From IMG/VR virus record IMGVR_UViG_2563366895_000003, positions 1 to 23,534 of that record: 23,534 bases of DNA; one strand, 5' to 3'. Below the pieces are notes generated by a model. The model did no database searches. It was not told the DNA's origin and saw only the letters and a program-made list of their open reading frames with translations. Each line of letters opens with the position of its first letter. Positions within the stretch are counted from its first letter, which is position 1. Positions 1,237-22,304 of the stretch are shown here, piece by piece. A program made the position numbers and the translations under genes. Origin of the DNA: a virus (Duplodnaviria; Heunggongvirae; Uroviricota; Caudoviricetes).

Positions 1237-1237
1237 A

Positions 1238-5387: not shown

Positions 5388-5459
5388 TGTTTTTTAACCT
5401 CAACTCAGATTAAAATTCGTTTTGTTCAGTGAATGATCTTGCCGGATACACACTGTTCA

Positions 5460-5490
5460 TAGCCTGCGCCATACGCAGGCTATTTCTTTC
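5460..5490. other. Perfect 9-bp stem-loop (TAGCCTGCG-CCATA-CGCAGGCTA) plus TTTCTTTC in the racC-recE intergenic region
   Basis: Read directly from the sequence. The T-rich tail is on the plus strand, so it is not a canonical terminator for the minus-strand operon; possibly an RNA processing or stability element. Confidence 0.4.
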
Positions 5491-5764: not shown

Positions 5765-5838
5765 GTTTTTCTCCTTAATTAAGGTTGAGCGAATCCCTGC
5801 CATTGCTGGCATAAATTCAGTTTCGCATAGTCAGTTAA

Positions 5839-6009
5839 TTAAAGTTCGTGTGCCATCTGGTCTTTTTCGGCACATATTTCACTACAATATTTTTTCATTT
5901 CCGTCGTTGGGATAACTCCACGCATGAAATGAAGTGGTCTTTTAATGCTTTTGCTTTCTTTAACTTCTTTATCGCAAAGATGGTAAGCACATTTTATTTT
6001 CTTAGTCAT
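5839..6009 (-). CDS. ydaE: YdaE-like Cys-rich small protein, 56 aa (below the ORF-track cutoff)
   Basis: Hand translation: [56 protein letters not shown]. The ATG at 6007-6009 overlaps the kilR stop (ATGA), suggesting translational coupling. Confidence 0.65.
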   Translation of the reverse strand: MTKKIKCAYHLCDKEVKESKSIKRPLHFMRGVIPTTEMKKYCSEICAEKDQMAHEL

Positions 6010-6230
6010 CACCATGACTCCGCCTTTACAGGTAAACCATCACGACCGAGGAAGACTTTAATCATGCAGTCAGTAATGCATGTTTTTGTGGTCAGGTTAC
6101 GAATATAAAGTTTTCGCTTTTTAATATTGTTTGCCGAGGCAATATATGTCCGGCCGTTATGAAGAATATAATCACCAGGAGTCACACACTGACGAGGTAT
6201 TTCATCAGTTCCGAAGTGATGAGCAATCAT
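6009..6230 (-). CDS. kilR: Cell-division inhibitor KilR, 73 aa
   Basis: Translation [46 protein letters not shown]; GGAGAT Shine-Dalgarno 4 nt upstream of the chosen ATG. Confidence 0.8.
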
Positions 6231-6321
6231 AATTATCTCCATTTTCACAAATGAACTTTGTTGATGCGGTGCCTGGTGCCTCCAGGTGACGTTAACCAGT
6301 TAACAATTAACGCCGGATACC

Positions 6322-6660
6322 GTGGCTGATGTCATGAGTGCTCTACACGCTAGCTATGACGACGGGCAATCAGGCGAAAAATTTTTGCGGGAACTGTGCC
6401 AAGTGGATCTGCTGGTTCTTGATGAAATTGGCATTCAGCGCGAGACAAAAAACGAGCAGGTGGTGCTGCACCAGATTGTTGATCGCCGGACAGCGTCGAT
6501 GCGCAGCGTGGGGATGCTGACAAACCTGAACTATGAGGCCATGAAAACATTGCTCGGCGAGAGGATTATGGATCGCATGACCATGAACGGCGGGCGATGG
6601 GTGAATTTTAACTGGGAGAGCTGGCGTCCGAATGTCGTCCAGCTAGGAATTGCGAAGTGA
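6322..6660 (+). pseudogene. 5'-truncated DnaC-like helicase-loader remnant (C-terminal ~112 aa only)
   Basis: The ORF begins inside the AAA+ domain: a Walker-B-like DLLVLDEIG sits at residues ~29-37 and no Walker A/P-loop precedes it. No plausible start or Shine-Dalgarno. Confidence 0.6.
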
Positions 6661-6682
6661 TTTTTACCGGGAGGAAATTTTA

Positions 6683-7444
6683 ATGGAAACCGTTTTTGAT
6701 GCACTGAAAGCAATGGGAAAAGCCACGTCGGTAGAACTGGCTGCGCGACTTGATATCAGTCGTGAAGAAGTGCTGAACGAGCTGTGGGAACTGAAAAAGG
6801 CTGGATTCGTTGATAAAAGCGTATACACCTGGCGTGTGGCCGATAACAACGTTCAGCAGGAACATCCAGTGCCGGAAGAACAGCCGGAAGAAATCGCCAC
6901 AGCAACAGTGACGAAAATATCGGAGTGCGATTTAACCGCGACGATTGAACAACGTGGTCCACTAACTGCGGATGAACTGGCTACGTTGTTCGGTACCACA
7001 TCACGCAAAGTGGCTTCAACGCTGGCAATGGCAATCAGCAAGGGGCGTCTGATTCGCGTAAATCAGAACGGTAAATTTCGTTACTGCATGCCGGGCGATA
7101 ATTTACCAGCAGAACCGAAAGCTGCATTGGTAACGAAAAATGATGGTAAAGCCTTTCCTCAGCCAGCCGGTGCTGCGTTACCAGTACAGGAAGCGGCAAC
7201 ACAGGAAGATATTAAAACAGAAACTGTGGCGGACATTGTGCAGTCGCTGCCATCGTTTACTGAAACGCAAGCGGATGACTTGGTTTTACCATCGCTGCAT
7301 ATAGCAAACCGCGAACTGCGTCGGGCGAAAAATCATGTCCAGAAGTGGGAGCGTGTCTGCGCCGCGCTGCGGGAGCTGAACAAGCACCGGGATATTGTTC
7401 GACAGATTGTCGATTCCTCCAGTCGTATTGTGTCGGAAAAGTGA
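6683..7444 (+). CDS. Tandem winged-helix (wHTH) protein, 253 aa, function unknown
   Basis: GGGAGG Shine-Dalgarno before the ATG at 6683. Two internally similar segments ([30 protein letters not shown] and [31 protein letters not shown]) each resemble a wHTH recognition unit. Confidence 0.65.
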
Positions 7445-7459
7445 TTGCCGGAGGCGCTT

Positions 7460-7882
7460 ATGGCAAAAGTTTTTACACAGGAAGAGCGTGAAAAAATTAA
7501 GGAGCAGGTTGTTGAGCTGGTACGCCAGAGTGGGCGCGAGACGTTAAGGCAACTGGAGGCCAAGACAGGGGCGACAAGATATCTGATGAACATTCTTGCC
7601 AGAGAGTTGGTTGCCAGTGGCGATGTATACAACTCTGGCTATGGGTTATTTACCTCTGAACAGGCTCGTAAGGACTGGAATAACGCCCGCAAAAAACTAT
7701 CCAGGGCAAAGGTGAAAAAAACGGTTGTGGTTGATCCTGACCTTATCTGGTCATTACCAGACGGAGAAATACGCCGATATGACGGGCGTCTGAATATAAT
7801 CTGTAGCGAGTGCCGTAAGAGCGAAGTTATGAAGCGTGTACTGATGTTTTATCGAGGAAGTATCCAGGAATTTATTCGGTAA
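7460..7882 (+). CDS. Hypothetical prophage protein, 140 aa
   Basis: GGAGG Shine-Dalgarno 5 nt before the ATG at 7460; follows the previous gene after a 15-nt gap; no recognisable motif. Confidence 0.6.
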   Translation: MAKVFTQEEREKIKEQVVELVRQSGRETLRQLEAKTGATRYLMNILARELVASGDVYNSGYGLFTSEQARKDWNNARKKLSRAKVKKTVVVDPDLIWSLPDGEIRRYDGRLNIICSECRKSEVMKRVLMFYRGSIQEFIR

Positions 7883-8018
7883 GCAAAATCAAAATGTAAT
7901 CGCTCAAGTTTAAGTTGGTGTATCTACGGCGCAGAGCCATCGCCTCATCTGGCACTGCGCTAAAATCAAATTTAGTTCCACTCTTTATTTCGTATCTGCT
8001 AAAACGCTACATAAAATT

Positions 8019-8291
8019 TTACTTTTTTAAAGAATAAGGGAATATGTGCACCATATTGGAGGCTAGTGGATATATTCCTATGCTACGAGTTGTCTTTTTT
8101 AGTTGATCTATGCTTGCTTCTTTATCGGGAGCCCGGCCTCCCCACACTGTAACTCCCTCAGGTATATCGATTGGGCGACTTTTGTTTTCATCTGTGATTT
8201 CAATCGTTTCCCCATTATTAAGCGTAATAATCAACGATGACACGTCCAGGTGTTGTGTATTCCCATTTTTATTTTTAATGTCTATTTTCAT
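8019..8291 (-). CDS. Hypothetical small protein, 90 aa, AT-rich
   Basis: ORF only; no convincing Shine-Dalgarno. Composition differs from neighbours. May be spurious. Confidence 0.3.
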   Translation of the reverse strand: MKIDIKNKNGNTQHLDVSSLIITLNNGETIEITDENKSRPIDIPEGVTVWGGRAPDKEASIDQLKKTTRSIGIYPLASNMVHIFPYSLKK

Positions 8292-8561
8292 GGCTATTTC
8301 ATTATATGTTATCTGTGCTGGAGTAATAAGTTTACAGTATTAAGAAGCATTTTGACGAAACAATCAACTGACTTATCAGCTAAGGTGGCATTGTAATGCG
8401 ATCTGATTGGTATCATCAGGACGCTGTTCAAAAAAGGGGGATTAGTTGATCTTGAAATCTTGCTCAAAATGTGTAGCCTCTCGTTTAACTGCCAACTTTT
8501 TGGGGCAGTACACTCTGATGCTACACAACTTGCAAGTTTCATTACCCCGACGTAAACATTT

Positions 8562-9230
8562 ATGACAGTTGCTGATTTCAAACGTCCTAAGTTGGAGCTC
8601 CCAAACGGGGCAAACAAACTACTATTACACTCTTGTTGTGCACCATGTTCCGGTGAAGTGATGGAGGCTCTTCAGGCCTCAGGAATCGACTACACCATCT
8701 TCTTCTATAATCCGAACATTCATCCTCAGAAAGAGTATTTGATTCGTAAGAATGAGAATATTCGATTTGCTGAACAACATGGTGTACCGTTTATCGATGC
8801 TGATTACGACACTGACAACTGGTTTGAGCGAGCCAAAGGAATGGAATGGGAGCCCGAACGTGGGAGGCGTTGTACTATGTGTTTTGACATGCGTTTTGAA
8901 CGGACGGCGCTGTACGCCGCTGAAAATGGTTTCAGTGTGATCAGCAGTTCACTGGGCATTTCACGCTGGAAAAATATGCAGCAGGTTAACGACAGCGGAC
9001 GGCGAGCTGTCGCACATTATCCGGGCATGGTGTACTGGGATTATAACTGGCGCAAGCAGGGAGGCTCGTCCCGCATGATTGAAATCAGCAAACGCGAACA
9101 ATTCTATCAGCAGGAATATTGTGGTTGCGTGTATTCACTTCGCGATACCAATTTACACCGCAAATCCCAGGGACGCCCTCTTATCAAAATTGGTCAACTC
9201 CACTACGGTAAAGAAGAAGGGCAGGAATGA
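8562..9230 (+). CDS. queH: DUF208/QueH-like protein (putative epoxyqueuosine reductase), 222 aa
   Basis: N-terminal [11 protein letters not shown] plus [10 protein letters not shown] and YCGCVYS motifs, which I recall as the conserved Cys signature of the QueH/DUF208 family. Single-gene unit with its own flanking non-coding DNA. Confidence 0.65.
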
Positions 9231-9770
9231 TTTTTACATTACGTCAACAGAGTGTCACAACGTTTCTATATATGGTATGCCGACCGTAATTTTCGAATCA
9301 TCATGACTAATAGGCAGGTCACCTATGCCAGCAATGACCTGCTCATCTTGAAATTAGCAGAAATCTTGTAGCTATGATGTAGCTCAAAATAGTTTTTCAT
9401 TCTTTTACCTGATGTCTGTTCCTGGCTGAAAACAGACTGTATTATTTGATTACGCACCACTGACACTTGTGTATTGAAGTAGTGAGTACAAAGCCACATA
9501 TTTATCAGTGTATGTATACGTCAAAAACAGAAGATTGTTGTGCTGGTTCTGAAGTGTGCGTTAGCAATAGTGGCTGTGGTGGCAATTTATTGCCTTGTTG
9601 TTGTTCTTATGGAGCGACTTTCTGATTGATTACATACTGGCTAAAAAAAAGCGTTTGCCTGGCTTATCTTTGTCCGGCAAGGTGCGCTCATTAATCTGAA
9701 GTAAATTTATTTCTTAAGTATTCAGATTACTTCTTATGGTCGAAGTCTCCTGGCAATGTAGAACCAAAAT

Positions 9771-9813
9771 ATTTACAAAAACGAGACCCGTCGAGGATAG
9801 CTCTGCCGGGTCT
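9771..9813 (-). terminator. Intrinsic terminator candidate for the YeaR-like gene
   Basis: 7-bp stem AGACCCG/CGGGTCT with a 16-nt loop; on the minus strand it is followed by CGTTTTTGTAAAT. Confidence 0.45.
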
Positions 9814-9842
9814 GATTGTTAAAGTATTTTTAATATGATCAT

Positions 9843-10181
9843 CTATTTTTTGGTGCTATAAACTTTTTCGCCTGAGAAGTCTGGAGCGACCCAAAAGTTA
9901 ATATTAAACTGAGCATCATCGCTTAGTTCAACACGGTGCCAGTATTGTGGTGGGCTTGTTGCAAAAGAGCCAGCATTAATAACTACTTTTATCTCTGGTT
10001 CAGTAGTATTCTCATCAGCAAAACCATAATATGTTACAGTGCCTTCCATTACGCACAACTGCCCAAAAACACCTGCTGCTGTATTATGATGTGTTAATAA
10101 CGCTGAAGGTACGTTCTCTTTTGTGAAGAACGGAGTTGAGCGTTTGATTACCCAATCTTTAGGAATTCTCTTGTGTGTCAT
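9843..10181 (-). CDS. YeaR/DUF1971-like small protein, 112 aa (tentative family call)
   Basis: ATG at 10181 with GGAGGTG 5 nt upstream. The family call rests on my recollection of YeaR-type proteins and is tentative. Confidence 0.55.
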   Translation of the reverse strand: MTHKRIPKDWVIKRSTPFFTKENVPSALLTHHNTAAGVFGQLCVMEGTVTYYGFADENTTEPEIKVVINAGSFATSPPQYWHRVELSDDAQFNINFWVAPDFSGEKVYSTKK

Positions 10182-11052
10182 AACCACCTCCTATAAAACA
10201 TGTATTATAAATGCACCTTTTGAGGGGTTATGTCAAGCTCTTATGAAACACATAATTGATATGTTGATTAGAGGAGAAGATAGAATAAATATGGTTGTTT
10301 TTCGTATAACTACTTGTTTTGCTTTTGGTTTATGCATTCTATGTGTTAGGAATAAGTTATTAAAGCTTAATCAAGAAATCTCGATGTATTCCACATAGAT
10401 TACTGTTACTGAACCTTATTGTGTGCATTAGTTGTGTTCTGAAATTTCAGCTTAATTATTTATGATATATTTTTTAACGATAAATGTTTTCCCAGGTAAA
10501 AGACAGTTGGGAATAAGATAAGTAATATATCATTAATCTTGATTATTCCCAGGGTACCTTTACTGTGCATATAAATAAATCATATATGCATCAAATAATG
10601 TAAAGGCATCCTTTTAGATATGTCTTATCAAATGTTAATGACTTGAGTGGGAAACATGATTCCAGCAACTTATCATGTGGCTACTTTATAAAAATAATGC
10701 CCATATAAAACAACAAGCAAAAAGGATTACGGATAAAAAAGGAGCGAGATGTGCAAACTTGTTATTTTCCATGTTTAACCACCTTAAATAATTGATGATG
10801 ACGGGATGATTGCATCTGTAATGCTTTTATTGAAATGTTATGATAAAAAAGAACTTTTTCATAACATTAAAATGTAATTTAGCTAATCGTTTTTAATAAT
10901 AAGTGTCGTATTTCTATCCTTGTACCAGCTATTTGATATGTAGTGTTTGTTCATGCTATGTGGGGCTTTACACCATAGCCAGTTTATTTATACTTTATTC
11001 GTCAGCCTGAACAACTGGCATCTGCTGCACTGCGCCATAGAGAGATTGAGAA

Positions 11053-11652
11053 ATGGCGCATATACAACTGGTCAAACAAACTTCTTCTGGTTTACTTCTC
11101 CCGGCGACGCCGGAGAGTTGTGATTTTCTGCATCAAATTAAAATAGGCGAGTGGATACACGCTGATTTTAAGCGTGTGCGTAACTACGCATTCCACAAGC
11201 GTTTTTTCAAACTCCTGCAACTGGGATTCGATTACTGGACTCCGGTCGGTGGGGCGATCACGCCTCGCGAACGAGAACTGCTGTCTGGTTTCGTTGATTA
11301 CCTGTGCGAATCAGTTGGTCGGGAACACACGCCAGCCCTGAGTGATGCCGCAGAGCAATATCTGAATACAGTTGCGACACGCAGAACCCGGGATACGGCA
11401 TTGCTAAAGTCGTTTGAGGCTTTTCGCGAGTGGGTAACCATTCAGGCTGGATTTTACACCGAACATTTTTATCCGGACGGTAGCCATGGGCGTCGGGCGA
11501 AATCCATCGCTTTTGCGAATATGGACGAAACCGAGTTTCAGCAGGTTTATAAATCTGTTCTGAATGTGCTGTGGAACTGGATTCTGTTCCGTAAATTTTC
11601 CTCTCTGGAACAAGTCGAAAATGTGGCCGCGCAGCTGCTGGAGTTTGCGTAA
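11053..11652 (+). CDS. Lambdoid Nin-region protein (DUF1367-like), 199 aa
   Basis: ORF upstream of, and stop/start-overlapping (TAATG), the next gene; typical Nin-region position ahead of the Q candidate. Confidence 0.65.
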   Translation: MAHIQLVKQTSSGLLLPATPESCDFLHQIKIGEWIHADFKRVRNYAFHKRFFKLLQLGFDYWTPVGGAITPRERELLSGFVDYLCESVGREHTPALSDAAEQYLNTVATRRTRDTALLKSFEAFREWVTIQAGFYTEHFYPDGSHGRRAKSIAFANMDETEFQQVYKSVLNVLWNWILFRKFSSLEQVENVAAQLLEFA

Positions 11653-11942
11653 TGGTGGATTTACGTAAAGCGGCGCGGGGGCAGATGTGCACCGTCAGAA
11701 TTCCTGGCTACTGCAATCACGATCCGGAAACGTCTGTGCTGGCGCATTACCGACTGGCGGGAACGTGCGGAACAGCGACAAAACCACACGATATGCAGGC
11801 GGCGATTGCCTGTAGCTCATGCCACGATCTAATCGACGGGCGGGTAAAAACCAGCGATTACACCAAAGAAGAATTACGCCTGATGCATGCAGAAGGTGTT
11901 TTTCGCACACAAGAAATCTGGAGAAAGGAGGGATATTTGTGA
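11652..11942 (+). CDS. DUF1364/YbcO-like Cys-rich putative nuclease, 96 aa
   Basis: Cys motifs CTVRIPGYCNHD and CSSCHDLIDGR; position between a Nin protein and the Q candidate, as for ybcO in DLP12-type prophages. Confidence 0.65.
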   Translation: MVDLRKAARGQMCTVRIPGYCNHDPETSVLAHYRLAGTCGTATKPHDMQAAIACSSCHDLIDGRVKTSDYTKEELRLMHAEGVFRTQEIWRKEGYL

Positions 11943-12481
11943 TTTACCCAACGAATACAGGAAAAAGCGGAGAACACCTTCGTCTCGCCACGCTGGAAAG
12001 TGTCTGGATTCAGGGCAAACTGCGTATGTGGGGGCGCTGGTCGTATATTGGCGGTGGCAGGTCAGGAAATATGTTCAATCAGTTGTTGGCATCCCAAAAA
12101 TTGACGAAAACAGCCATCAATGAAGCCCTGCGCAGAATGAAAAAAGCGGGAATAGAGAAAGCTGAGCTGGAAGCGTTTTTGAGAGAGATGATCAACGGCA
12201 AGCAAAAGAGCTGGCTGGCGCATTGTACTGATGCAGAGGCGTTATGTATTGATCGAGTCATAAGTGAGGTGCTGGCAGAGCATCCAGGATTGATTAGCGT
12301 CCTTCGGCAACGGTATGAGGGGCGGGGAATGACCAAACGCAAAATGGCTGAATTGCTAAATGATGCACACCCAGAGTGGTGTTTTAGCACATGCGAAAAG
12401 CGAATTGCTAATTGGTTGGCCGTTGCTGAGTATGCGCTATACATTCCCATGCGAGAATCATTCGCTCAAAAAACGGCTTGA
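11939..12481 (+). CDS. Late-gene antiterminator Q candidate (positional), ~180 aa, GTG start
   Basis: GGAGGG Shine-Dalgarno 6 nt before a GTG that overlaps the preceding stop (GTGA). Last gene before a strong terminator, tRNAs and the lysis cassette. I did not recognise a Q-type zinc-finger motif, so the call is by position only. Confidence 0.45.
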   Translation: MIYPTNTGKSGEHLRLATLESVWIQGKLRMWGRWSYIGGGRSGNMFNQLLASQKLTKTAINEALRRMKKAGIEKAELEAFLREMINGKQKSWLAHCTDAEALCIDRVISEVLAEHPGLISVLRQRYEGRGMTKRKMAELLNDAHPEWCFSTCEKRIANWLAVAEYALYIPMRESFAQKTA

Positions 12482-12566
12482 TTTTTTACGCATAAACTGC
12501 TTCAATTTTGCTACGCTTCGCAAAGCTGTATCGCGTGGCGAATCAAGCGCAATTAAACTTTAATAG

Positions 12567-12597
12567 AACCCGCATCGAGCGGGTTTTGTTGTTTTTG
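12567..12597 (+). terminator. Strong rho-independent terminator (tR'-like position)
   Basis: Stem AACCCGC, loop ATCGA, stem GCGGGTT, then TTTTGTTGTTTTTG. Confidence 0.7.
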
Positions 12598-12833
12598 TGG
12601 GGTGATATAAGAAACGACATTTAATAATTGCCTTCAAAATAAATTTGTTTATATATTGTCGCGTATATTTTAAATGAAGGTGAAATGTTCACATAAAATA
12701 AAAATACATAAATAAATTTACATAACTTGACGAAAAGTGTTGTTGCGATTGGAATATTAAATCGTATTATCGAAAACGGTTCTGAGGGGGAACTCTTCTT
12801 TGATCGGTGATATCGCTCCCCTGAAGAACCAAT

Positions 12834-12909
<76 letters not shown>

Positions 12910-12912
12910 TAT

Positions 12913-12987
<75 letters not shown>

Positions 12988-13352
12988 GCATTTGAAACAA
13001 GCCTTATTGTATTGCGGCACTGGCGTATTTTTTATTACGTGGGAGCAGGTTGTTTTGGAAAAGCATTCTGTTCTCTGGCTATGATTTGAGGCCAGGTGTA
13101 GCCTCAGTGCTGATTTTTTTACGACAGCAGAATGGTGCATTATCGGTGGAGATTTTGTATTTCCTGGCAGGGTCGGTGATGCATCATTCTGGTGTTGTAA
13201 AAGCACCACAGAGGTGTTCCTCAGTGCGAGGGTAGTTTATATAGTGGTTTAGCGGGGAATCACAATATTTGTTGTAGGGACAGATATTTCGGGAGGCACC
13301 CGACACCTCGATTTTTATTACAATTAAAATGATTTATCTTATACATTGACCA

Positions 13353-13378
13353 ACCGCCATATCTGGCGGTTTTTTTTA
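13353..13378 (+). terminator. Rho-independent terminator after the tRNA pair
   Basis: Stem ACCGCCA, loop TATC, stem TGGCGGT, followed by T8. Confidence 0.6.
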
Positions 13379-13765
13379 TACCTGCATCAGACAAAAAAAG
13401 ACACGAGCATCCAGGAATACTCGTGGGACAACGTCCGTTAGATAGCAATTTGCGAGAGGGTGAAAAGTAGCGCGGTCGTCGGATTAAGACCGCGGGACAA
13501 AGTCCATGAAGAATAATAAGTATTGGCCCCCTTCTGGGGACATGTTCATACTACTAAGCTTCAGAAGTGGTTTAAATCATCAAATTAACCTTAATTTTCG
13601 ATAAGTCTTATTTCATTTCTTTGCGCCACATCTGGCGCGCATCAAATAACGCCACGCAAAGGGCATATGCGGATGCCGGTGCTTTTGACGGGGTGTTTTT
13701 TACGGGCCGCTGGTGGCCATTTTTTGTTTCCGTTACACAGCGCCCGCATCTGCGAGGTGGGGGTT

Positions 13766-13981
13766 ATGAAATCCATGGATAAGTTAACAACGGGTGTCGC
13801 CTATGGCACCTCCGCAGGCAGTGCTGGCTACTGGTTTTTACAGCTGCTCGATAAAGTCACGCCCTCACAGTGGGCAGCAATAGGTGTGCTGGGTAGCTTG
13901 GTATTTGGCCTGCTGACGTACCTGACAAACCTTTATTTCAAGATTAAAGAAGATAAGCGCAAGGCTGCGAGAGGTGAATAA
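13766..13981 (+). CDS. Class II holin (phage 21 S-like pinholin), 71 aa
   Basis: GAGGTGGGGG Shine-Dalgarno; dual-start motif MKSM; translation [50 protein letters not shown] ... KRKAARGE resembles S21 as I recall it. Stop overlaps the next start (TAATG). Confidence 0.85.
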
Positions 13982-14478
13982 TGCCTCCATCATTACGAAA
14001 AGCCGTTGCTGCTGCTATTGGTGGCGGAGCAATTGCTATAGCATCAGTGTTAATCACTGGCTCAAGTGGTAACGATGGTCTGGAGGGTGTCAGCTACATA
14101 CCATACAAAGATATTGTTGGTGTATGGACTGTATGTCACGGGCATACAGGAAAAGACATCATGCTCGGTAAAACGTATACCAAAGCAGAATGCAAGGCAC
14201 TCTTGAATAAAGACCTTGCCACTGTCGCCAGACAAATTAACCCGTACATCAAAGTCGATATACCGGAAACAACGCGCGGCGCTCTTTACTCATTCGTTTA
14301 CAACGTGGGTGCTGGCAATTTCAGAACATCGACGCTTCTTCGCAAAATAAACCAGGGCGATATCAAAGGGGCATGTGATCAGCTACGTCGCTGGACATAT
14401 GCTGGCGGTAAGCAATGGAAAGGTCTCATGACTCGTCGTGAGATTGAGCGTGAAATCTGTTTGTGGGGTCAGCAATGA
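13981..14478 (+). CDS. SAR (signal-anchor-release) endolysin, lysozyme-type, 165 aa
   Basis: Gly/Ala-rich N-terminal SAR segment ([23 protein letters not shown]) followed by a lysozyme-like domain; the position and holin pairing fit the R21 type. Confidence 0.85.
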
Positions 14479-14939
14479 ACAGAGTAACCGCGATTATCTC
14501 CGCTCTGATTATCTGCATCATCGTCTGCCTGTCATGGGCTGTTAATCATTACCGTGATAACGCCATTACCTATAAAGCCCAGCGCGACAAAAATGCCAGA
14601 GAACTGAAGCTGGCGAACGCGGCAATTACTGACATGCAGATGCGTCAGCGTGATGTTGCTGCGCTCGATGCAAAATACACGAAGGAGTTAGCTGATGCGA
14701 AAGCTGAAAATGATGCTCTGCGTGATGATGTTGCCGCTGGTCGTCGTCGGTTGCACATCAAAGCAGTCTGTCAGTCAGTGCGTGAAGCCACCACCGCCTC
14801 CGGCGTGGATAATGCAGCCTCCCCCCGACTGGCAGACACCGCTGAACGGGATTATTTCACCCTCCGGGAACGACTGGTAATGATGCAGGCCCAACTTGAA
14901 GGAGCTCAGCAATACATAACCGAACAGTGTTTAAAGTAA
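14475..14939 (+). CDS. rzpR: Spanin inner-membrane subunit Rz, 154 aa
   Basis: ATG overlaps the endolysin stop (ATGA); N-terminal TM helix then coiled-coil-like region; contains an embedded +1-frame Rz1. Confidence 0.8.
14695..14880 (+). CDS. rzoR: Spanin outer-membrane lipoprotein Rz1, embedded in Rz, 61 aa
   Basis: GAAGGAG Shine-Dalgarno 7 nt upstream; signal peptide with lipobox-like VVGC; proline-rich mature part ([15 protein letters not shown]). Confidence 0.75.
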
Positions 14940-15076
14940 AATCTTAACTACAATATGATTTATTTTGATGATTGTTTCATAAGGAACAGTGAAGTAAGAT
15001 CTAAGAGGAGTTAAATTTTATACAGTATAATCATAATATTGCAGCAAGGTGGTTATAATTGAAAGAATATTTAGAT

Positions 15077-16534
15077 ATGAATACATCTCATGTAAGAGTT
15101 GTTACTCATATGTGTGGGTTCCTGGTTTGGCTCTATAGTCTTTCAATGTTGCCACCAATGGTTGTAGCATTGTTTTATAAAGAAAAAAGCCTGTTCGTTT
15201 TCTTTATAACCTTCGTTATATTTTTTTGCATTGGTGGCGGAGCGTGGTATACAACTAAGAAATCTGGCATTCAATTACGTACCCGTGATGGGTTTATTAT
15301 AATTGTAATGTTTTGGATTTTGTTTTCTGTTATTAGTGCATTCCCTTTATGGATTGACTCAGAACTTAATTTAACGTTCATTGATGCTCTTTTTGAAGGG
15401 GTTTCTGGAATAACAACAACAGGAGCAACTGTAATTGATGATGTTAGTTCATTACCTCGGGCATATTTGTACTATCGGTCACAGTTAAATTTTATAGGTG
15501 GTTTAGGAGTTATTGTTCTGGCGGTTGCTGTATTGCCATTATTGGGTATTGGTGGTGCAAAGCTTTATCAGTCAGAAATGCCGGGGCCATTTAAGGATGA
15601 CAAACTCACTCCCCGCCTGGCCGATACGTCACGGACACTGTGGATAACTTATTCTTTATTAGGTATTGCTTGTATTGTCTGTTATAGACTTGCAGGAATG
15701 CCTTTGTTTGATGCTATTTGTCACGGGATTTCCACAGTTTCGCTTGGTGGTTTCTCAACTCATAGCGAGAGTATCGGATATTTTAATAACTATTTGGTTG
15801 AGCTGGTGGCTGGTTCTTTTTCCCTGCTATCGGCTTTCAACTTCACTCTTTGGTATATTGTTATTAGCAGGAAAACGATAAAGCCTTTAATCAGAGATAT
15901 TGAACTTCGTTTCTTTCTGTTAATAGCCTTAGTGGTGATCATTGTTACCTCTTTCCAGGTCTGGCATATAGGTATGTATGACTTGCATGGAAGTTTTATT
16001 CATTCGTTTTTTCTTGCCAGCTCCATGCTCACTGATAATGGTTTAGCTACGCAGGATTATGCAAACTGGCCCACGCACACGATAGTGTTTTTGCTGTTGT
16101 CAAGTTTCTTTGGGGGATGTATAGGTTCAACTTGTGGTGGAATTAAGTCACTTCGATTTCTTATACTTTTCAAACAAAGCAAACACGAGATAAATCAGCT
16201 TTCTCATCCCAGAGCGTTGTTGAGTGTAAATGTAGGAGGGAAGATAGTTACAGATCGTGTAATGAGGTCTGTATGGAGTTTCTTTTTTCTTTATACTCTC
16301 TTCACGGTGTTTTTTATACTGGTGTTAAATGGTATGGGATATGATTTTCTTACATCATTTGCAACAGTGGCTGCATGTATTAATAATATGGGATTAGGTT
16401 TTGGGGCTACTGCATCGTCATTCGGAGTGCTTAATGACATTGCAAAATATTTAATGTGCATAGCTATGATTCTTGGTCGCCTTGAAATTTATCCTGTTAT
16501 TATATTGTTTTCAGGTTTTTTTTGGCGCTCCTAA
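15077..16534 (+). CDS. trkG: Trk-system K+ uptake membrane protein TrkG, 485 aa
   Basis: Polytopic membrane protein; translation from MNTSHVRVVTHMCGFLVWLYS matches TrkG as I recall it. Markedly AT-rich, no obvious Shine-Dalgarno, TATAAT-like boxes at 15026-15031 and 15054-15059. Confidence 0.88.
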   Translation: MNTSHVRVVTHMCGFLVWLYSLSMLPPMVVALFYKEKSLFVFFITFVIFFCIGGGAWYTTKKSGIQLRTRDGFIIIVMFWILFSVISAFPLWIDSELNLTFIDALFEGVSGITTTGATVIDDVSSLPRAYLYYRSQLNFIGGLGVIVLAVAVLPLLGIGGAKLYQSEMPGPFKDDKLTPRLADTSRTLWITYSLLGIACIVCYRLAGMPLFDAICHGISTVSLGGFSTHSESIGYFNNYLVELVAGSFSLLSAFNFTLWYIVISRKTIKPLIRDIELRFFLLIALVVIIVTSFQVWHIGMYDLHGSFIHSFFLASSMLTDNGLATQDYANWPTHTIVFLLLSSFFGGCIGSTCGGIKSLRFLILFKQSKHEINQLSHPRALLSVNVGGKIVTDRVMRSVWSFFFLYTLFTVFFILVLNGMGYDFLTSFATVAACINNMGLGFGATASSFGVLNDIAKYLMCIAMILGRLEIYPVIILFSGFFWRS

Positions 16535-16620
16535 TATATGGCTGATTTATAATTGTGAGTTTAATATTATATTGACTCACTCATTGATCCAATACCTAAC
16601 TTTACCAGCAACACCTCCGC

Positions 16621-16656
16621 CCCCAGTAGCACTGGCTGCTGGGGTGCGTTTTATTC
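16621..16656 (+). terminator. Terminator candidate downstream of trkG
   Basis: Stem CCCCAG ... CTGGGG followed by TGCGTTTTATTC; the T-run is interrupted. Confidence 0.4.
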
Positions 16657-16671
16657 ATAAAGCAAGGCTGT

Positions 16672-17259
16672 ATGAGCGAGAAATTAAAGATAGTCTATCG
16701 CCCATTACAAGAATTGTCACCGTATGCGCACAACGCCAGGACGCACAGTACTGAGCAGGTGGCACAACTGGTAGAAAGTATTAAGCAATTCGGCTGGACT
16801 AATCCGGTGCTGATTGACGAAAAGGGCGAAATTATTGCGGGTCACGGTCGTGTTATGGCGGCTGAAATGCTCAAAATGGATTCTGTTCCGGTCATTGTTC
16901 TGTCTGGCCTGACGGATGAGCAGAAAAAGGCGTACCGCTTGGCAGATAATCGCCTACCGATGAATGCTGGCTGGGATGAAGATCTGTTGCGGATGGAGCT
17001 GTCGGTCCTAATCAATGCTGATTTTGATGTCTCCCTGACAGGCTTCGGCCCGACAGAAATTGATGAACTGTTGACGGATGTTTTGCCCGGTACAGGAAAT
17101 AAGGAGGAGCCGTATACGACGAAAATTGATACGCCTGTTTATGAGCCGTCGGGCGGTAAACCGGATATCAGTGAACTGTACGACGATACGAAAACTCAGG
17201 AGCTGATCAGCCGGATACGTTCGGCGTCCCTTGAACCCGCCAGTAAAAGATCGCGTTAA
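16672..17259 (+). CDS. ParB-like nuclease-domain protein (YnaK-like), 195 aa
   Basis: ParB N-terminal-domain-type motifs (GHGRVMAA ... KKAYRLADN) with an acidic C-terminal tail; lies immediately upstream of the terminase remnant. Confidence 0.65.
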   Translation: MSEKLKIVYRPLQELSPYAHNARTHSTEQVAQLVESIKQFGWTNPVLIDEKGEIIAGHGRVMAAEMLKMDSVPVIVLSGLTDEQKKAYRLADNRLPMNAGWDEDLLRMELSVLINADFDVSLTGFGPTEIDELLTDVLPGTGNKEEPYTTKIDTPVYEPSGGKPDISELYDDTKTQELISRIRSASLEPASKRSR

Positions 17260-17488
17260 CTCAATGAATGCAATGTTCTGCAATGCCAATGGTGAGCGTC
17301 GCTATAAAGTTAATGTGAAGCGTTGTCCGGTATATGCCGAATCACTGGAGCAACAGGTCTGGGATGATAAGGGGGAGCCTGATAAAAAATCTGGCAATGA
17401 TCACCCGAATGATGCCGGAGGTTATTTCATCGTTAAGCAATTCCCTATTGTCAAACCGACCGGAAGAGTCACATCACTTCGGATTTAA
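17231..17488 (+). pseudogene. Terminase large-subunit C-terminal remnant (YdaY-like), ~85 codons
   Basis: Short ORF overlapping the 3' end of the ParB-like gene and ending 3 nt before the putative portal start; call is by position and a weak C-terminal resemblance (GNDHPNDAGGYF). Confidence 0.4.
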
Positions 17489-17490
17489 TT

Positions 17491-18897
17491 ATGGCTGATA
17501 TATCAACACCCAACCTCGACTATAACGATATGCTGGAAGCGTGGGATATTAACGACGCATTGATGGGCGGTACGCTTGAAATGCGCAGGCAGGGGGAAAA
17601 TTATCTCCCCAAATGGCCTAATGAAGATGAAGACGCTTATAAAAAACGCCTGTCTGTGGCTACGCTACTTCCTGTGTATGAAGAAAGCATCAAACAAAAT
17701 ATTGGGCGCATATTTGCAGAGCCGACAGTATTGAGTGAGGAAACGCCGGAAAAAATCAGGGAATATGCAGAAAATATCGACATGGAGGGGAGCCGACTGG
17801 ATGTGTGGGCGCAGCAATTTTTCAGTCTCGCATTTCAGTATGGTGTGGCACATGCGCTGGTGGACTATCCACGAACGGATATGAACGAGATTCGGACAAA
17901 AGCCGATGAAAACGCGGCCGGTGGTCGCCCGTACGTTACGATGCTGAATCCACGCCAGGTTATTGGATGGAAATCGAAAGTTGAAAAAGGGAAAGTTGTT
18001 CTCACTGATTTGCGTATAAAAGAGGTCATCATTATTGATGGTGATGATTTCGGGCAGAAGAAGGTGGAGCAGATCCGCCATATTATGCCCCGTCGAGTAG
18101 AAATTTATCGACGCAGCGAAGGTACTAATGGCGAATCTGTCTGGATGCTTCATGAGTCATGGAATACCAGCCGTGATGATATTCCTCTGGTAACACTGTA
18201 TACGAAGAAAACAGGGTTTATGCGTGGTACACCGCCATTGCTTAATCTTGGCTTGCTGAATATCAAGCACTGGCAAAGCCAGAGCGAGCAGGACAATATT
18301 CTTCATGTTGCCCGCGTTCCATTGCTGGTGGCCTACGGGCTGGACAGGAATGAAGAACTGACGGTTGGTGCATCCACCGCTACGATTTTTGAGGACAGAA
18401 CAAAAAATGGCCTCGAATATGTTGAACATAGTGGCGCAGCGATAGAATCTGGCGAAACATCACTTGAGAAGCTGGAAAATCAGATGCGTCATGCCGGCGC
18501 TAAACTTCTGCGGGCTGAAAATACATCCACCAAATCTGTTGATCAGACTAATGAAGAGCGGATGCAGGAACACTCGCCGCTTTATACAATGGCGAACTCC
18601 CTCGAAGATGCCCTCGATAATATTCTCCAGATAATGGCGGAATGGAGCGGAGAGAGTTGCGGTGGCAATGTGGATGTGCGCACTGAACTGGATGTATCTG
18701 CCCAGGTGTTTGACTCATCCTCCGCGCTGGCTGTTCAGTCATTGCGTCAGGGCGGTGATATACGTCAGATTGATGCGGTTCGGGTGTTGCAGGCGTTGAA
18801 ATTTATCGATCAGGATTCCCGTCCAGAGGAAGTGATCGATGAATTAAAAAATCAGAGTGTAATGCTGATGGAAATCAATGATGCAAACCGTGAATGA
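17491..18897 (+). CDS. Putative phage portal protein (positional call), 468 aa
   Basis: Large ORF directly after the terminase remnant and overlapping the next ORF; size and acidic C-terminus are compatible with a portal. No motif-level confirmation. Confidence 0.5.
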   Translation: MADISTPNLDYNDMLEAWDINDALMGGTLEMRRQGENYLPKWPNEDEDAYKKRLSVATLLPVYEESIKQNIGRIFAEPTVLSEETPEKIREYAENIDMEGSRLDVWAQQFFSLAFQYGVAHALVDYPRTDMNEIRTKADENAAGGRPYVTMLNPRQVIGWKSKVEKGKVVLTDLRIKEVIIIDGDDFGQKKVEQIRHIMPRRVEIYRRSEGTNGESVWMLHESWNTSRDDIPLVTLYTKKTGFMRGTPPLLNLGLLNIKHWQSQSEQDNILHVARVPLLVAYGLDRNEELTVGASTATIFEDRTKNGLEYVEHSGAAIESGETSLEKLENQMRHAGAKLLRAENTSTKSVDQTNEERMQEHSPLYTMANSLEDALDNILQIMAEWSGESCGGNVDVRTELDVSAQVFDSSSALAVQSLRQGGDIRQIDAVRVLQALKFIDQDSRPEEVIDELKNQSVMLMEINDANRE

Positions 18898-19813
18898 ACG
18901 GCTGCGTGATGAATCAATTGCTCATGCAGTCTGGATATCCCGCTATAGCACTGGTGTGGCTGCCAGAATGGTGAAGATACTGAATGACAGCGATGCGGAG
19001 CTTACAGCTCGCCTGCTGGTAGCACTGGACAGCCTCGATCCTGGTAGTTTTACCGTTACGCGCCTGGAGTCACTTCTGGCGAGTGTCAGAGAGGTTAACG
19101 GGGCTAAAGCGCAGGCGCTCACTATCAACAGGAATGAGGTTAACTCAACCGTTGATTTAACCCTTACAAAGCAATCAGGGACTGGCAATCGTTTTGTTTT
19201 ACAGAACTCAGGTAATGCAGAACTACCGTTTTCTGTCAGGGTGTGGGGTTCCAGTACTCGACAAAACGTTTTTGAGGTTGGAACGTCTGCTGCGTATCTG
19301 TTTTATGCTCAAAAAACATCTTCAGGTCAGCTGTTTGATGTAAACGGTGCTATTAACTGTACAACACTGAATCAGTTATCAGACCGCGAGCTGAAAGACA
19401 ATATTCAGATTATCAGTGACGCAACCGAAGCTATCCGTAAAATGAACGGGTACACCTACACACTTAAGGAAAACGGACTACCTTACGCTGGTGTTATTGC
19501 ACAGGAAGCAATGGAGGCAATACCGGAAGCGGTAGGCTCATTCACTCATTACGGTAAAGAGTTGCAGGGACCAACGGTTGACGGCAATGAATTACGTGAA
19601 GAAACACGTTATCTGAATGTTGACTACGCCGCCGTGACGGGGTTACTTGTTCAGGTCGCCCGTGAAACAGATGATCGCGTTACCGCGCTGGAAGAGGAAA
19701 ATACAACGTTACGTGAAAATCTGGCAACAGCAGGCACCCGGATCACCACTCTGGAAAATCAGGTAAGCGAACTGGTTGCACTTGTCCGGCAGTTAACAGG
19801 AAGCGAACATTGA
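18878..19813 (+). CDS. Chimeric ORF ending in a tail-fibre/tailspike C-terminal intramolecular chaperone (Peptidase S74-like) domain, 311 aa
   Basis: C-terminal half carries LSDRELKDNI ... NGYTYTLKENGLPYAGVIAQEAMEAIPEAV, which I recall as the self-cleaving chaperone motif of fibre proteins. The N-terminal ~90 aa look unrelated to a fibre shaft. Confidence 0.65.
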   Translation: MMQTVNERLRDESIAHAVWISRYSTGVAARMVKILNDSDAELTARLLVALDSLDPGSFTVTRLESLLASVREVNGAKAQALTINRNEVNSTVDLTLTKQSGTGNRFVLQNSGNAELPFSVRVWGSSTRQNVFEVGTSAAYLFYAQKTSSGQLFDVNGAINCTTLNQLSDRELKDNIQIISDATEAIRKMNGYTYTLKENGLPYAGVIAQEAMEAIPEAVGSFTHYGKELQGPTVDGNELREETRYLNVDYAAVTGLLVQVARETDDRVTALEEENTTLRENLATAGTRITTLENQVSELVALVRQLTGSEH

Positions 19814-19852
19814 TATCCTTCAAGCCCTGAAGGAGGCTGTTCCTGGTACGTT

Positions 19853-19996
19853 CAGACTGTTGTTGAGCTGGAGATCGCAACGGAGGAAGAAACCTTGTTG
19901 CTGGAAGCCTGGAAAAAGTATCGGGTGTTGCTGAACCGTGTTGATACATCAACTGCACCTGATATTGAGTGGCCTGCTGTCCCTGTTATGGAGTAA
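19853..19996 (+). pseudogene. Tail fibre assembly protein (Tfa) C-terminal remnant, ~47 codons
   Basis: Reads ...[43 protein letters not shown], in the same frame as and directly after the TGA of the preceding ORF. Resembles Tfa C-termini as I recall them; no start codon of its own. Confidence 0.5.
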
Positions 19997-20099: not shown

Positions 20100-20888
20100 T
20101 TAAGCATCACGTATTGCCAATCTGATTTTTGACTGATACCAATTGGGGCCTTCTGCAATTATTTCTTCCTCAACATGCATGATGGGATGCATTTCAATTT
20201 CAGAGTTTTTGACTTTCAGATCTAGTCCATGTTTTTTTGAAATTTGTAAAACTTCATTTTTGAAATCCTTATCTGCGAAAGGTGAAATCCTTATTTCTTC
20301 CAACAGATTATTAAGAGATACAGGGACTAGTTTTCCCTTTACAGGTGGAGTGTTAAAGGTATTCTCTTGAAAAATAGCTCTAAACTCTTTTTCGTATTCG
20401 AAAGATGGTCTCTTGTTAAAGAATACATCTGATTCTGGATTGTATTGTTTTATCCAGAAATTTTTGACGTATTTTACGTGTTTTAATTGTAGTTTGTTTA
20501 GATTATTATTTTCAAGTTGGCTTTGGAGGTTTTTTTTCTTTGATTTTATGACAACGCCTTTAGCGGGGTTTTTACAATACAGCTTCCACATAGCTTCAGA
20601 TTCATGTTCGTTACAATGCCAGCAACTTATATATGTCCTCTCGCTTATTTCCTTAAGTGTCTTTAAATTGAATGCCATGAAAGGATCTAAGTCCATGCCG
20701 GCACCATAAGTAGCGCATAGTTTTTCCTGTGTCTCAATGAATTTTTTATAGCCAGTATGTCCCCAAGCAAATTCACCTTCGAACGGATCTTCAAAATTTT
20801 TTGCTGAGCAAAAAAATAAAGCATTTTGTTCGAGTAACATAGAGAATTTCTCTATGTCAAGGTATCGCCATATATACTCAGTGTGCAT
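20100..20888 (-). CDS. DUF2971-family protein, 262 aa, very AT-rich
   Basis: AAGGAG Shine-Dalgarno 5 nt before the ATG at 20888. N-terminal IWRYLDIEKFSMLLEQNALFFCSAKNFEDPFEGEF, then ISCWHCNEHESEAMWKLYC and LKHVKYV, matching the DUF2971 pattern as I recall it. Confidence 0.7.
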   Translation of the reverse strand: MHTEYIWRYLDIEKFSMLLEQNALFFCSAKNFEDPFEGEFAWGHTGYKKFIETQEKLCATYGAGMDLDPFMAFNLKTLKEISERTYISCWHCNEHESEAMWKLYCKNPAKGVVIKSKKKNLQSQLENNNLNKLQLKHVKYVKNFWIKQYNPESDVFFNKRPSFEYEKEFRAIFQENTFNTPPVKGKLVPVSLNNLLEEIRISPFADKDFKNEVLQISKKHGLDLKVKNSEIEMHPIMHVEEEIIAEGPNWYQSKIRLAIRDA

Positions 20889-21017
20889 GATAGCTCCTTG
20901 CAATATAACTATTTCTATCTGTTCATTTGTACTTAAAAAGGATTGAGTAGCCTGAACAGTTCTATCCGTAAATATACCAGATAGAAGAGTTGTACAATAA
21001 CAAATCCTCCGTATAAG

Positions 21018-21056
21018 AACCAGCCATAATAGTCTGGTTCTTAAGGTTTTTTTTGT
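21018..21056 (+). other. Stem-loop GAACCAG-N10-CTGGTTC followed by a plus-strand T8 run, between the two cassette genes
   Basis: Read directly. Terminator-like for plus-strand (antisense) transcription only; on the coding strand it is preceded by an A-run, not followed by a U-run. Confidence 0.4.
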
Positions 21057-21101
21057 TCTAGGGGGGGTTAACCTACGATTCGTCCCCATATCGACGATAA
21101 A

Positions 21102-22304
21102 TCAGGCCTGTACCAACGCTTCTGTTTCTGTGAGTGAAATCTGATAGCGTTTTACTGCCTCAGCAAAGGCGTGCGCGGCATCTGCATTTGATACCATATA
21201 TTCTTCAGTTACCCCTGTTTGAGAATGGAAAGTAATATTTCCATAAATGCAAATAGGGATTTGGTAGTTATCTTTAAAACGACGGTCTGGTGAGCCATTC
21301 TTATTCGTTTTCGCCCATGTATAACCATCTATGCGTGAGTCACTGGGAACACCTTCTTCCTCATGGAATCTTAGATATTCTGAACTAATTTGTAATTCGC
21401 GTAAATCAATCAGAGCGAATGCTCCATCAGCTCGTGGTATGACTGCAACTCCAGGATAAAGCAAAATATCGTCTCCATTCACATTTTCAAACCTCATCGC
21501 ACGCCCTGTAAATTGAATGAGATCCGTTGAACTAAAATCAAAGGTAACTGGGTGACGATTAACAGACCGGGTTGCTAATGTTCTTTCAGCAAACTGGTCT
21601 GTAGCTTTATCTGCAGTAATATCCCATTTTTTGACACTCGATTTTAACATATCAAATGCATGGACCATCGCTGCATATGCGCGCTGTGAAGCATCACTGC
21701 TCTCGAATGTTATGGCTATTTTTGTGCTGTCTTCCCATGAAACTAGGCGAGATATCTCAGCTTGGGTTAGGGGGAGTAGTGTCTCAAGTTCTGCGATGCG
21801 TCGTTTGTAAAACCAACGGAATAGACTTGATTTGCGTCGAGCCAACTCGCTTTTTTGTTTTGATTCTTCGGCAAGAGCCTCTTGAAGATCTGCTTTTATT
21901 TCTGCTCTTTGTTCTCGTGCTTTAGCAATCAAATCTCGTAAAGGTAAAAGGGAGGTACTTGTAAGGACTTCTACCGAAGCGCTGGATATTTCATTCATGC
22001 CAGCTACAGGCATATATATTTTAGCGTTCGATGGTGTATTTTCTGGAGATGACCCAGACCCCAAATGAGGTTCTGTAGGGGCTGGATTTAATGGATTGGT
22101 AACTGAGTATCCATCATCATAGGGCAAGGTAGGTGTAGTATAAGATAAGCCTGTGCCCGGTAATCCGACAGTTGCTCTAACCCCTTTTTTACCAACATTG
22201 ACAGTTGCGCCAGGCACGCCAATGCTTGCACTTATTCCACGCTTGCCAATGTTGAGTCGAACGCCAGGAAATAGAGTAAAGGTTTGTCTGAAACGAAGAG
22301 ACAT
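21102..22304 (-). CDS. DUF4236 N-terminal-domain protein with coiled-coil middle and unassigned C-terminal domain, 400 aa
   Basis: N-terminal FTLFPGVRLNIGKRGISASIGVPGATVNVGKKGVRATVGLPGTGLSYTT is the Gly/basic DUF4236-type repeat pattern as I recall it; a coiled-coil-like stretch follows; C-terminal ~200 aa unrecognised. Confidence 0.7.
   Translation of the reverse strand: MSLRFRQTFTLFPGVRLNIGKRGISASIGVPGATVNVGKKGVRATVGLPGTGLSYTTPTLPYDDGYSVTNPLNPAPTEPHLGSGSSPENTPSNAKIYMPVAGMNEISSASVEVLTSTSLLPLRDLIAKAREQRAEIKADLQEALAEESKQKSELARRKSSLFRWFYKRRIAELETLLPLTQAEISRLVSWEDSTKIAITFESSDASQRAYAAMVHAFDMLKSSVKKWDITADKATDQFAERTLATRSVNRHPVTFDFSSTDLIQFTGRAMRFENVNGDDILLYPGVAVIPRADGAFALIDLRELQISSEYLRFHEEEGVPSDSRIDGYTWAKTNKNGSPDRRFKDNYQIPICIYGNITFHSQTGVTEEYMVSNADAAHAFAEAVKRYQISLTETEALVQA

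Follow-up and report, generated by a model that had tools for sequence, protein, structure and literature searches.

An apparently intact phage 21/DLP12-type lysis cassette, very probably spared by recent deletions, in a Rac-type prophage of Escherichia coli

The window, by which we mean the whole 23,534-nt stretch of DNA analysed here, differs from the chromosome of E. coli WL164 (NZ_CP128642.1) by a single synonymous change over its entire length (position 14370, Gly130 of the endolysin R), so that the WL164 annotation can be applied to it. According to this annotation, the prophage extends from intR, which adjoins ttcA, to sitD, and it belongs to the Rac family, having intR next to ttcA, a left arm composed of xisR-ralR-recT-recE-kilR, and trkG after the lysis genes. 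The lysis genes occupy positions 13766–14939 of the + strand and comprise S (13766–13981, 71 aa), R (13981–14478, 165 aa), Rz (14475–14939, 154 aa), and Rz1 (14695–14880, 61 aa), the last lying wholly inside Rz in the +1 frame; directly 3′ of the cassette is the cargo gene trkG (15077–16534, + strand, PGAP annotation of WL164), encoding a K+ transporter. ORF calling and translation give all four lysis ORFs as full length and translationally coupled, the S stop and R start sharing TAATG in GAATAATGCC, and the R stop and Rz start sharing ATGA in CAGCAATGAAC. Shine–Dalgarno-like sequences precede S (GAGGTGGGGG), R (GAGAGGTG), and Rz1 (AAGGAG), and the corresponding sequence of Rz (TGGGG) is weaker than these three. 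The Pfam matches are far above chance for all four products (PF04971, P21 holin S, 2e-35; PF00959, phage lysozyme, 1.3e-45; PF03245, Rz, 3.5e-53; PF06085, Rz1, 2e-19), and the PHROG lysis families concur with these assignments. Searched against Rfam, the cassette itself gave no structured-RNA hit above threshold. The earlier note on this DNA had described four full-length lysis ORFs with start/stop overlaps and good ribosome-binding sites, forming a pinholin/SAR endolysin/Rz-Rz1 cassette in a Rac-type prophage; the ORFs and their overlaps are as described, the identification is borne out by the family matches and by near-identical reference proteins, and the statement on ribosome-binding sites holds for the purine-rich sequences of S, R, and Rz1 and less well for the weaker one of Rz. 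As judged from its sequence, the cassette is thus intact and of the phage 21/DLP12 type, a lysis gene set of an already known kind, for which essD/rrrD annotations exist in hundreds of genomes.

S is a class II holin of the phage 21 pinholin type (PF04971, 121 bits against a cut-off of 26), identical at 71 of 71 positions to K-12 EssD and to the antiholin/holin of phage 434, and matching holins in 41 phage records at an identity of at least 99%. Its N-terminus, MKSMDK, holds the dual-start motif (Met1-Lys2-Ser3-Met4), whose role in S21 68/71 has been described (PMC9636201); translation from position 13766 gives the S71 antiholin, carrying an extra N-terminal positive charge, and translation from 13775 (Met4) gives the S68 holin, the same two starts being annotated in the phage 434 record. 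The first membrane segment (residues ~11–30) contains 45% Gly/Ala/Ser/Thr and falls below the hydropathy threshold, and the second (~36–57) forms the sole strong hydropathy peak (1.72). By analogy with phage 21, S is predicted to form small, heptameric pinholes that depolarise the membrane.

R is a SAR endolysin of the R21/RrrD type with a GH24 lysozyme domain (PF00959), identical at 163 of 165 positions both to the R protein of phage 434 and to K-12 RrrD, the two differences from each being S28P and I159V. It matches the solved structures of RrrD (PDB 4ZPU, 9e-111) and R21 (3HDE, 4e-110) over its full length, and its N-terminal SAR segment (residues 8–27; 65% Gly/Ala/Ser/Thr, hydropathy peak 2.11) is identical to the RrrD/R21 sequence in these entries. 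The Glu-Asp-Thr triad is kept as E35, D44, and T50, which we take, from the numbering of R21, to be the catalytic residues. Given this degree of identity and the matches to solved structures, R would be released and activated upon collapse of the proton-motive force.

The spanin is encoded by Rz, the inner-membrane subunit with its predicted periplasmic coiled-coil domain (PF03245; phrog_13 over the full length), and Rz1, the outer-membrane lipoprotein subunit (PF06085). Rz has an N-terminal membrane anchor (residues 1–29, hydropathy peak 2.64) and two cysteines, Cys99 and Cys152, and Rz1 has a lipobox (LVVVG-C20) followed by Thr21-Ser22, Cys29, and a proline-rich PPPPP stretch. Rz differs from the DLP12/434 reference at 13 of 154 positions; its final ~75 nt are Rac-specific and common to the K-12 rzpR pseudogene. 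The DNA of Rz1 is 100% identical to that of several relatives. In two genomes in which PGAP omits Rz, a lesion in this gene was considered and rejected, since translation gave an intact Rz.

Upstream of the cassette lies a gene for a Q-like late-gene antiterminator (11939–12481, + strand, 180 aa; phrog_753, “anti-termination protein Q-like”, 2.4e-78), which PGAP names a DUF1133 family protein in the WL164 record and which is full length in all of the Rac-type relatives checked, its start codon being GTG in the window and ATG in the relatives. It is followed by a presumed late-promoter leader (12482–12600, + strand) with a tR′-like intrinsic terminator, a hairpin of 13 pairs at 12561–12591 and then a T tract (RNA fold −36.8 kcal/mol, z = −3.6). 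A consensus scan between Q and this hairpin gave no convincing −35/−10 pair, and the late promoter placed by analogy in the Q-to-terminator interval is accordingly termed putative. Two tRNA genes predicted by ARAGORN stand on the + strand in the Q-to-S interval, tRNA-Thr (UGU) at 12834–12909 (Rfam tRNA, 72.2 bits), also found in the prophages of AR_0374 and 683R6, and tRNA-Gly (UCC) at 12913–12987 (65.6 bits). The ~780 nt immediately 5′ of S hold no convincing ORF, terminator-like hairpins between Q and S begin at 12561, 13086, 13352, and 13705, and a host promoter may lie somewhere in 13372–13765. The gene order Q, tRNA-Thr, tRNA-Gly, S, R, Rz, trkG, ParB, terminase recurs in 683R6 and AR_0374. 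In 666R9, a Rac-type prophage with a different holin and endolysin, homology to the window stops at 12594, just past the tR′-like hairpin, and restarts exactly at the Rz start (14475). That it ends right after the hairpin suggests that recombination moves Q together with its promoter and terminator as a single unit, and the gap defines S and R as an exchangeable module placed between this unit and the Rz-trkG unit.

The Rac prophage of K-12 is alike in its integration side, with intR next to ttcA, in its left arm from int through xis, ralR (with the RalA sRNA), recT, and recE to kilR (97.6% identical, window 1–6309), and in the segment containing the 3′ end of Rz, rzoR/Rz1, trkG, and ynaK (99.1% identical, window 14495–16925). 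The two prophages have lost different parts: racR-ydaS-ydaT-ydaU-ydaV are kept in K-12, whereas this immunity/replication block is missing from the window, and the region from ydaW to about codon 8 of Rz, including Q, the tRNAs, S, and R, is gone in K-12 but kept in the window. Homology to K-12 jumps from window position 7132 (in ydaW) to 14495 (at about Rz codon 8), corresponding to one deletion of which the rzpR pseudogene is the leftover. The earlier note had proposed alignment with the K-12 Rac lysis region as a check of intactness; the alignment was run, and K-12 Rac proved to lack S, R, and the initial ~7 codons of Rz, so that it is unable to test the intactness of the cassette. Being a deletion derivative that lost the cassette, K-12 Rac is the wrong reference, and essD-rrrD-rzpD/rzoD of DLP12, phage 434, and the solved R21/RrrD structures were used in its place. 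Nothing specific on Rac variants carrying lysis genes was found in the literature. Matching “phages” designated vB_EcoS-xxx were described in a study that located phages within genomes of clinical isolates, and they appear to be predicted prophages.

A close characterised counterpart is the module essD-rrrD/ybcS-rzpD/rzoD of the K-12 prophage DLP12, which has the same four-gene architecture and overlaps and whose products are identical to those of the window at 71/71 (EssD), 163/165 (RrrD), 141/154 (RzpD), and 56/61 (RzoD) positions, with 96.7% identity of the DNA over 1,116 bp; PGAP likewise names the window genes essD and rrrD. The settings of the two copies are different. DLP12 is located at argU, whereas the prophage of the window is of the Rac type and located at ttcA; DLP12 has QuuD in place of the DUF1133-type Q; it has nmpC where the window has the tRNAs and an sRNA-like element; and its cassette is followed by borD, whereas that of the window is followed by trkG and has Rz/Rz1 C-termini of the Rac type. 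Homology to DLP12 and to phage 434 is confined to 13749–14864, beginning 17 nt upstream of the S start, and because the upstream region of DLP12 is not shared, the regulation reported for DLP12 is not transferable to the Rac-linked copy. Compared with the cassettes of phages 21 and 434, the window copy has a holin identical to that of 434, an endolysin near-identical to R21/RrrD (3HDE, 4ZPU), and a spanin gene embedded in the same way, but its Rz diverges over the final ~75 nt and its Rz1 at the end, and it resides in a crippled prophage lacking repressor, replication, packaging, and virion genes. WL164 itself also holds DLP12, with quuD, an identical EssD, an RrrD with two residue differences, and an RzpD annotated as intact. 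The Rac and DLP12 cassettes of this strain differ at 32 of 1,161 nt, which excludes recent gene conversion, and conversion from the DLP12 copy was therefore rejected as the cause of intactness.

The state of the prophage becomes clear from comparison with the ~47-kb Rac-type prophage at ttcA of E. coli AR_0374 (NZ_CP027126.1), which is complete by annotation. It carries genes for a repressor and a cro-like protein, ydaT, ydaU, ydaV, Q, the same tRNAs, EssD, RrrD, Rz, and trkG, further ParB, terS, terL, portal, head, and tail genes, and its sole pseudogene flag is on a stray tail-fibre-assembly fragment at the right end. The window has identical protein accessions for EssD, RrrD, TrkG, IntR, and RecE and aligns with it in three blocks totalling 19.1 kb, namely 1–6319 (99.9%), 6315–17234 (99.7%), and 17230–19099 (99.6%), but the immunity, replication, packaging, head, and tail genes kept in AR_0374 are missing. 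At the first junction (6315–6319), 3,364 bp are missing relative to AR_0374, containing ydaF, the repressor gene, the cro-like gene, ydaT, ydaU, and the 5′ part of ydaV; at the second (17230–17234), 3,470 bp are missing, containing the 3′ part of the ParB-like gene, two hypothetical genes, terS, and most of terL. Both show imperfect microhomology of only 5 bp. At the third (19099–19100), where homology to AR_0374 and to 666R9 alike stops at 19099, the start of a minor-head gene is fused to the C-terminus of a tail fibre, all head and tail genes after the portal gene are missing, and a chimeric ORF (18878–19813) has resulted whose N-terminus matches head morphogenesis proteins and whose C-terminus matches tail fibres. 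Queries spanning the junctions found each of the three joined in one of 5,426 complete E. coli genomes, that of WL164. Junctions confined to a single genome, together with near-identity to AR_0374, indicate that the decay is specific to one strain lineage and very recent. In the WL164 annotation the remnant contains four pseudogenes, each cut short where a deletion or rearrangement took place or immediately beside such a site; frameshifts and internal stops are absent from all four. The earlier note had called the prophage otherwise decayed, which is correct in that whole blocks are missing relative to a complete relative, but not in that the retained genes would be fragmented, only the four cut at these sites being so; since the rest of the genes still present are full length, too, the lysis cassette does not stand out among them. 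Of the two explanations suggested there for the retention of the module, recent decay is strongly supported by this comparison of sequences, given the 99.6–99.9% identity to the AR_0374 prophage and the occurrence of all three junctions in a single genome. Domesticated use is not supported here, as the decay is recent and strain-specific, other Rac remnants lose the cassette yet keep trkG, and an intact DLP12 copy is present.

It is therefore most likely, and we hold this with considerable confidence from the sequence comparisons, that the cassette is the native late-operon cassette of a Rac-family lambdoid prophage and is intact because three strain-specific deletions are recent and spared it. 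Lysis in phage 21 begins with depolarisation of the membrane by the pinholin; this frees and activates the tethered SAR endolysin, and the spanin then breaches the outer membrane (PMC9636201). From near-identity to the characterised proteins, a similar course is predicted here: S, if transcribed, would be made as the S71 antiholin and the S68 pinholin, of which S68 would build up in the inner membrane and then suddenly open small pinholes, at which the proton-motive force would collapse; R, until then tethered to the membrane, would be freed into the periplasm, refold, and cut peptidoglycan, and the Rz/Rz1 spanin complex would then disrupt the outer membrane. In the whole phage, Q-modified RNA polymerase starting at the late promoter would pass the tR′-like terminator and the other hairpins before reaching S, by analogy to which the cassette is presumed to depend on Q. 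In lambdoid phages, the early rightward promoter lies in a region like that lost here with the repressor. The first deletion would thus have removed immunity, early replication, and the region of the early rightward promoter, the second would have removed packaging, and the third event morphogenesis, the cassette being missed by chance. Loss of the early promoter region probably leaves Q, and hence the cassette, without expression, in which case its retention would carry no cost; because of the hairpins between Q and S, little transcription should reach S without Q. A repressorless prophage with intact Q, S, R, and Rz would persist only if Q is not made, which fits the first deletion.

Rac loci in other strains were surveyed through trkG, which together with the Rac-type 3′ end of Rz is present in 1,541 of 5,426 genomes, in nearly all of them at an identity of at least 99%, and is attached to this type of cassette in 702 of the 1,541. 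A small sample of 16 trkG-bearing genomes, evenly spaced along the ranking, was inspected individually. The full cassette is present in seven, with all four ORFs intact in six, which include older and heavily decayed Rac remnants, and with IS3 within R in the seventh; a different holin/endolysin pair precedes the same Rz in four; and the cassette is partly or wholly deleted in about five (three with the ydaW::Rz junction of K-12, one with a recE::R fusion, and one with a recE::Rz fusion). All 16 genomes carry trkG, and the gene is damaged only in L008, by a frameshift, next to lysis ORFs that are all intact. Thus the cassette is deleted or IS-interrupted in about 6 of the 16 loci, and these counts from a small sample give no sign that it is kept more often than neutral decay would predict. 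The pN/pS ratios are 0–0.10 for S, 0.04–0.31 for R, and 0.10–0.45 for Rz; pS in S and R (0.03–0.29) is 3–25 times that in the adjacent trkG (~0.012), indicating that alleles have been acquired by exchange with the general pool of lambdoid phages, in which purifying selection acts on the lysis function of the phage. Low pN/pS was consequently rejected as evidence for or against domestication, the signal originating from allele exchange with that pool.

These observations bear on whether the Rac-linked S-R-Rz/Rz1 genes have been kept as a domesticated module for peptidoglycan turnover, vesicle control, biofilm formation, or toxin release. There is a published precedent in the near-identical DLP12 operon of K-12, which is transcribed and stress-regulated, is reported to be under the control of Q, RpoE, and Hha, and whose deletion raises the production of outer membrane vesicles about 4-fold, its authors arguing for domestication (PMC7918800); the six intact cassettes in the sample, badly decayed remnants included, and the low pN/pS (0–0.45) point in the same direction. 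Yet we consider this explanation unlikely for the window, since decay that is unique to one strain and very recent leaves no retention to be explained, S and R are lost by deletion or IS insertion from other Rac remnants while trkG stays, and the high pS of S and R relative to trkG reflects recombination with the phage pool. Moreover, the regulatory region of DLP12 is not shared, homology starting only 17 nt upstream of S, and the intact DLP12 cassette of WL164, with its identical EssD, makes the Rac copy redundant for any role of the DLP12 type. In a wider form, this explanation would hold that of its Rac-type prophages E. coli tends to retain the whole block of Q, the tRNAs, the sRNA-like element, S-R-Rz/Rz1, and trkG, whose lysis genes would serve alongside DLP12 in regulated autolysis, the control of vesicles, or peptidoglycan turnover, and that the three deletions of this strain spared the block because cells without it were at a disadvantage. 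The basis for it is mainly the six of seven intact cassettes found in older remnants, which may leave some room for selection in those lineages, and we give it only a small chance of being correct.

Protection by a neighbour rather than by a function of its own is also improbable in our judgement. The cassette lies within 140 bp of trkG, a beneficial cargo gene that would constrain deletions on one side, and the spread of trkG with the Rac-type Rz end over 1,541 genomes, its presence in every remnant examined, even those with the fewest phage genes, and the joint movement of the S-R-Rz-trkG block into prophages at other attachment sites are all in keeping with such hitch-hiking. But proximity to trkG protects only the Rz side, as the K-12, recE::R, and recE::Rz deletions readily approach from the left side, with endpoints within Rz or shortly ahead of it, one sampled genome combines a frameshifted trkG with intact lysis ORFs, and the effect is unneeded for the window, its decay being recent. 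It is less probable still, to the point of being nearly negligible, that the intactness is apparent only and that missense changes or the loss of regulatory signals have abolished the function of the cassette. S28P and I159V in R, the 13 differing positions of Rz, the GTG start of Q, and deletion of the early promoter region might be read in this way, but viable phages have a holin identical to S, the AR_0374 prophage that is complete by annotation has EssD and RrrD under the same accessions, the catalytic, lipobox, and cysteine features are all kept, and the C-terminal differences of Rz represent a Rac-type allele common to complete Rac-type prophages. The reading that remains well ahead in probability is that of a native late-operon cassette spared by recent deletions: until very recently the prophage was whole, the three deletions happened to miss the 1.2 kb of the cassette, and its intactness is therefore the null expectation.

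The locus adds little new biology as regards its proteins, which are identical or near-identical to well-studied ones, and the idea of domestication has already been published for the DLP12 copy. Its interest lies rather in how the decay of a prophage may be read, as a near-identical complete relative, combined with a count of the genomes sharing the deletion junctions, provides a direct dating of the decay. The locus is also a possible natural “orphaned” lysis cassette, with Q present and the repressor and early promoter gone. Finally, because decay here took the form of large deletions that left the untouched parts pristine, finding the lysis genes of a crippled prophage intact does not in itself argue for domestication.

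The gene for the Q-like late antiterminator starts at window position 11939 with a GTG codon, overlapping the preceding DUF1364 gene as GTGA, whereas the start codon is ATG in all five relatives checked, so that translation of Q may be lowered in this prophage. Downstream of the Q terminator and ahead of the holin gene S lie genes on the plus strand for tRNA-Thr(UGU) and tRNA-Gly(UCC) (12834-12987), close to a promoter-like site at 12743-12770, and the same tRNA pair is kept in the prophages of AR_0374, an E. coli strain carrying a near-identical and complete-looking Rac-type element, and of 683R6, another relative. In Stx phages, the equivalent site is where tRNAs and toxin genes are carried. 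Further along the Q-to-S interval, positions 13184-13381 (plus strand) match the prophage sRNA family STnc100 (RF02076) along its full length, but at 27.4 bits the match is below the gathering score of 47 (local-search E 0.0003), and the element is closed by a terminator hairpin and T run at 13352-13371. Two related Rac-type loci (L007 and L010) contain a clear STnc100 (86.6 bits) in the corresponding interval. The PasA, PasC, and PasD sRNAs are reported to adjoin holin/lysozyme operons, with STnc100, which is related to PasD, located nearby (2026 preprint, 10.64898/2026.05.13.724894). The element at 13184-13381 may be a divergent member of this PasA/C/D-STnc100 group.

The block formed by S, R, Rz, trkG, and ynaK, comprising lysis genes and a potassium transporter gene, also occurs in lambda-like prophages integrated at ybhC/bioA in E. 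coli wlxctx60 (L009) and ET474 (L012), both having other Q genes, of the QuuD type; therefore, trkG and the lysis genes travel together among prophage backbones. In a heavily decayed Rac remnant of E. coli EC7072022BGR (L008), none of the four lysis genes (S, R, Rz, and Rz1) is shortened and it is trkG that is frameshifted, the opposite of what is usually seen. The rzpR "pseudogene" of K-12 Rac is the outcome of a single deletion, in which ydaW became fused to Rz near codon 8 (window 7132 / 14495; 13201-13202 in the K-12 Rac locus, L002). About 7.4 kb was removed by it, and with this stretch went Q, the tRNAs, S, and R. In an even sample of 16 genomes that carry trkG, about 3 have this ydaW::Rz form, and several of these are laboratory strains of K-12. 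K-12 Rac also lacks the epoxyqueuosine reductase (QueH) gene that the window (8562-9230, plus strand) and AR_0374 prophages share as cargo in the nin region. The RalA antitoxin sRNA (1557-1735, plus strand; RF02694, 212 bits) is intact, as is ralR, the gene for the toxin, on the minus strand, and thus the window keeps the type I toxin-antitoxin pair of Rac.

At the right end of the window, the segment 19100-22476 encodes a tail-fibre C-terminus and a tail-fibre-assembly fragment, followed by DUF2971 and DUF4236 genes (20100-21089 and 21102-22304, minus strand) and then sitD. Except for a 127-nt stretch (19851-19977, 87% identical), it has no counterpart at that position in AR_0374, which instead carries an MFS transporter gene.

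In a set of 5,426 complete genomes of E. coli, the deletion junctions at 6315-6319, 17230-17234, and 19099 each occur in only one. Two of the three come from clean deletions (3,364 bp and 3,470 bp) and show microhomology of 5 bp that is imperfect. The third deletion produced a chimeric ORF of 311 aa (18878-19813, plus strand), whose residues 1-80 match a head-morphogenesis protein and residues 72-298 a tail-fibre C-terminus; PGAP treats this ORF as intact and names it "tail fiber domain-containing protein". Immunity/replication, packaging, and morphogenesis functions were lost by three separate hits in one lineage. Such a triple hit within a single lineage is unusual, and selection against a derepressed prophage could lie behind the three deletions.
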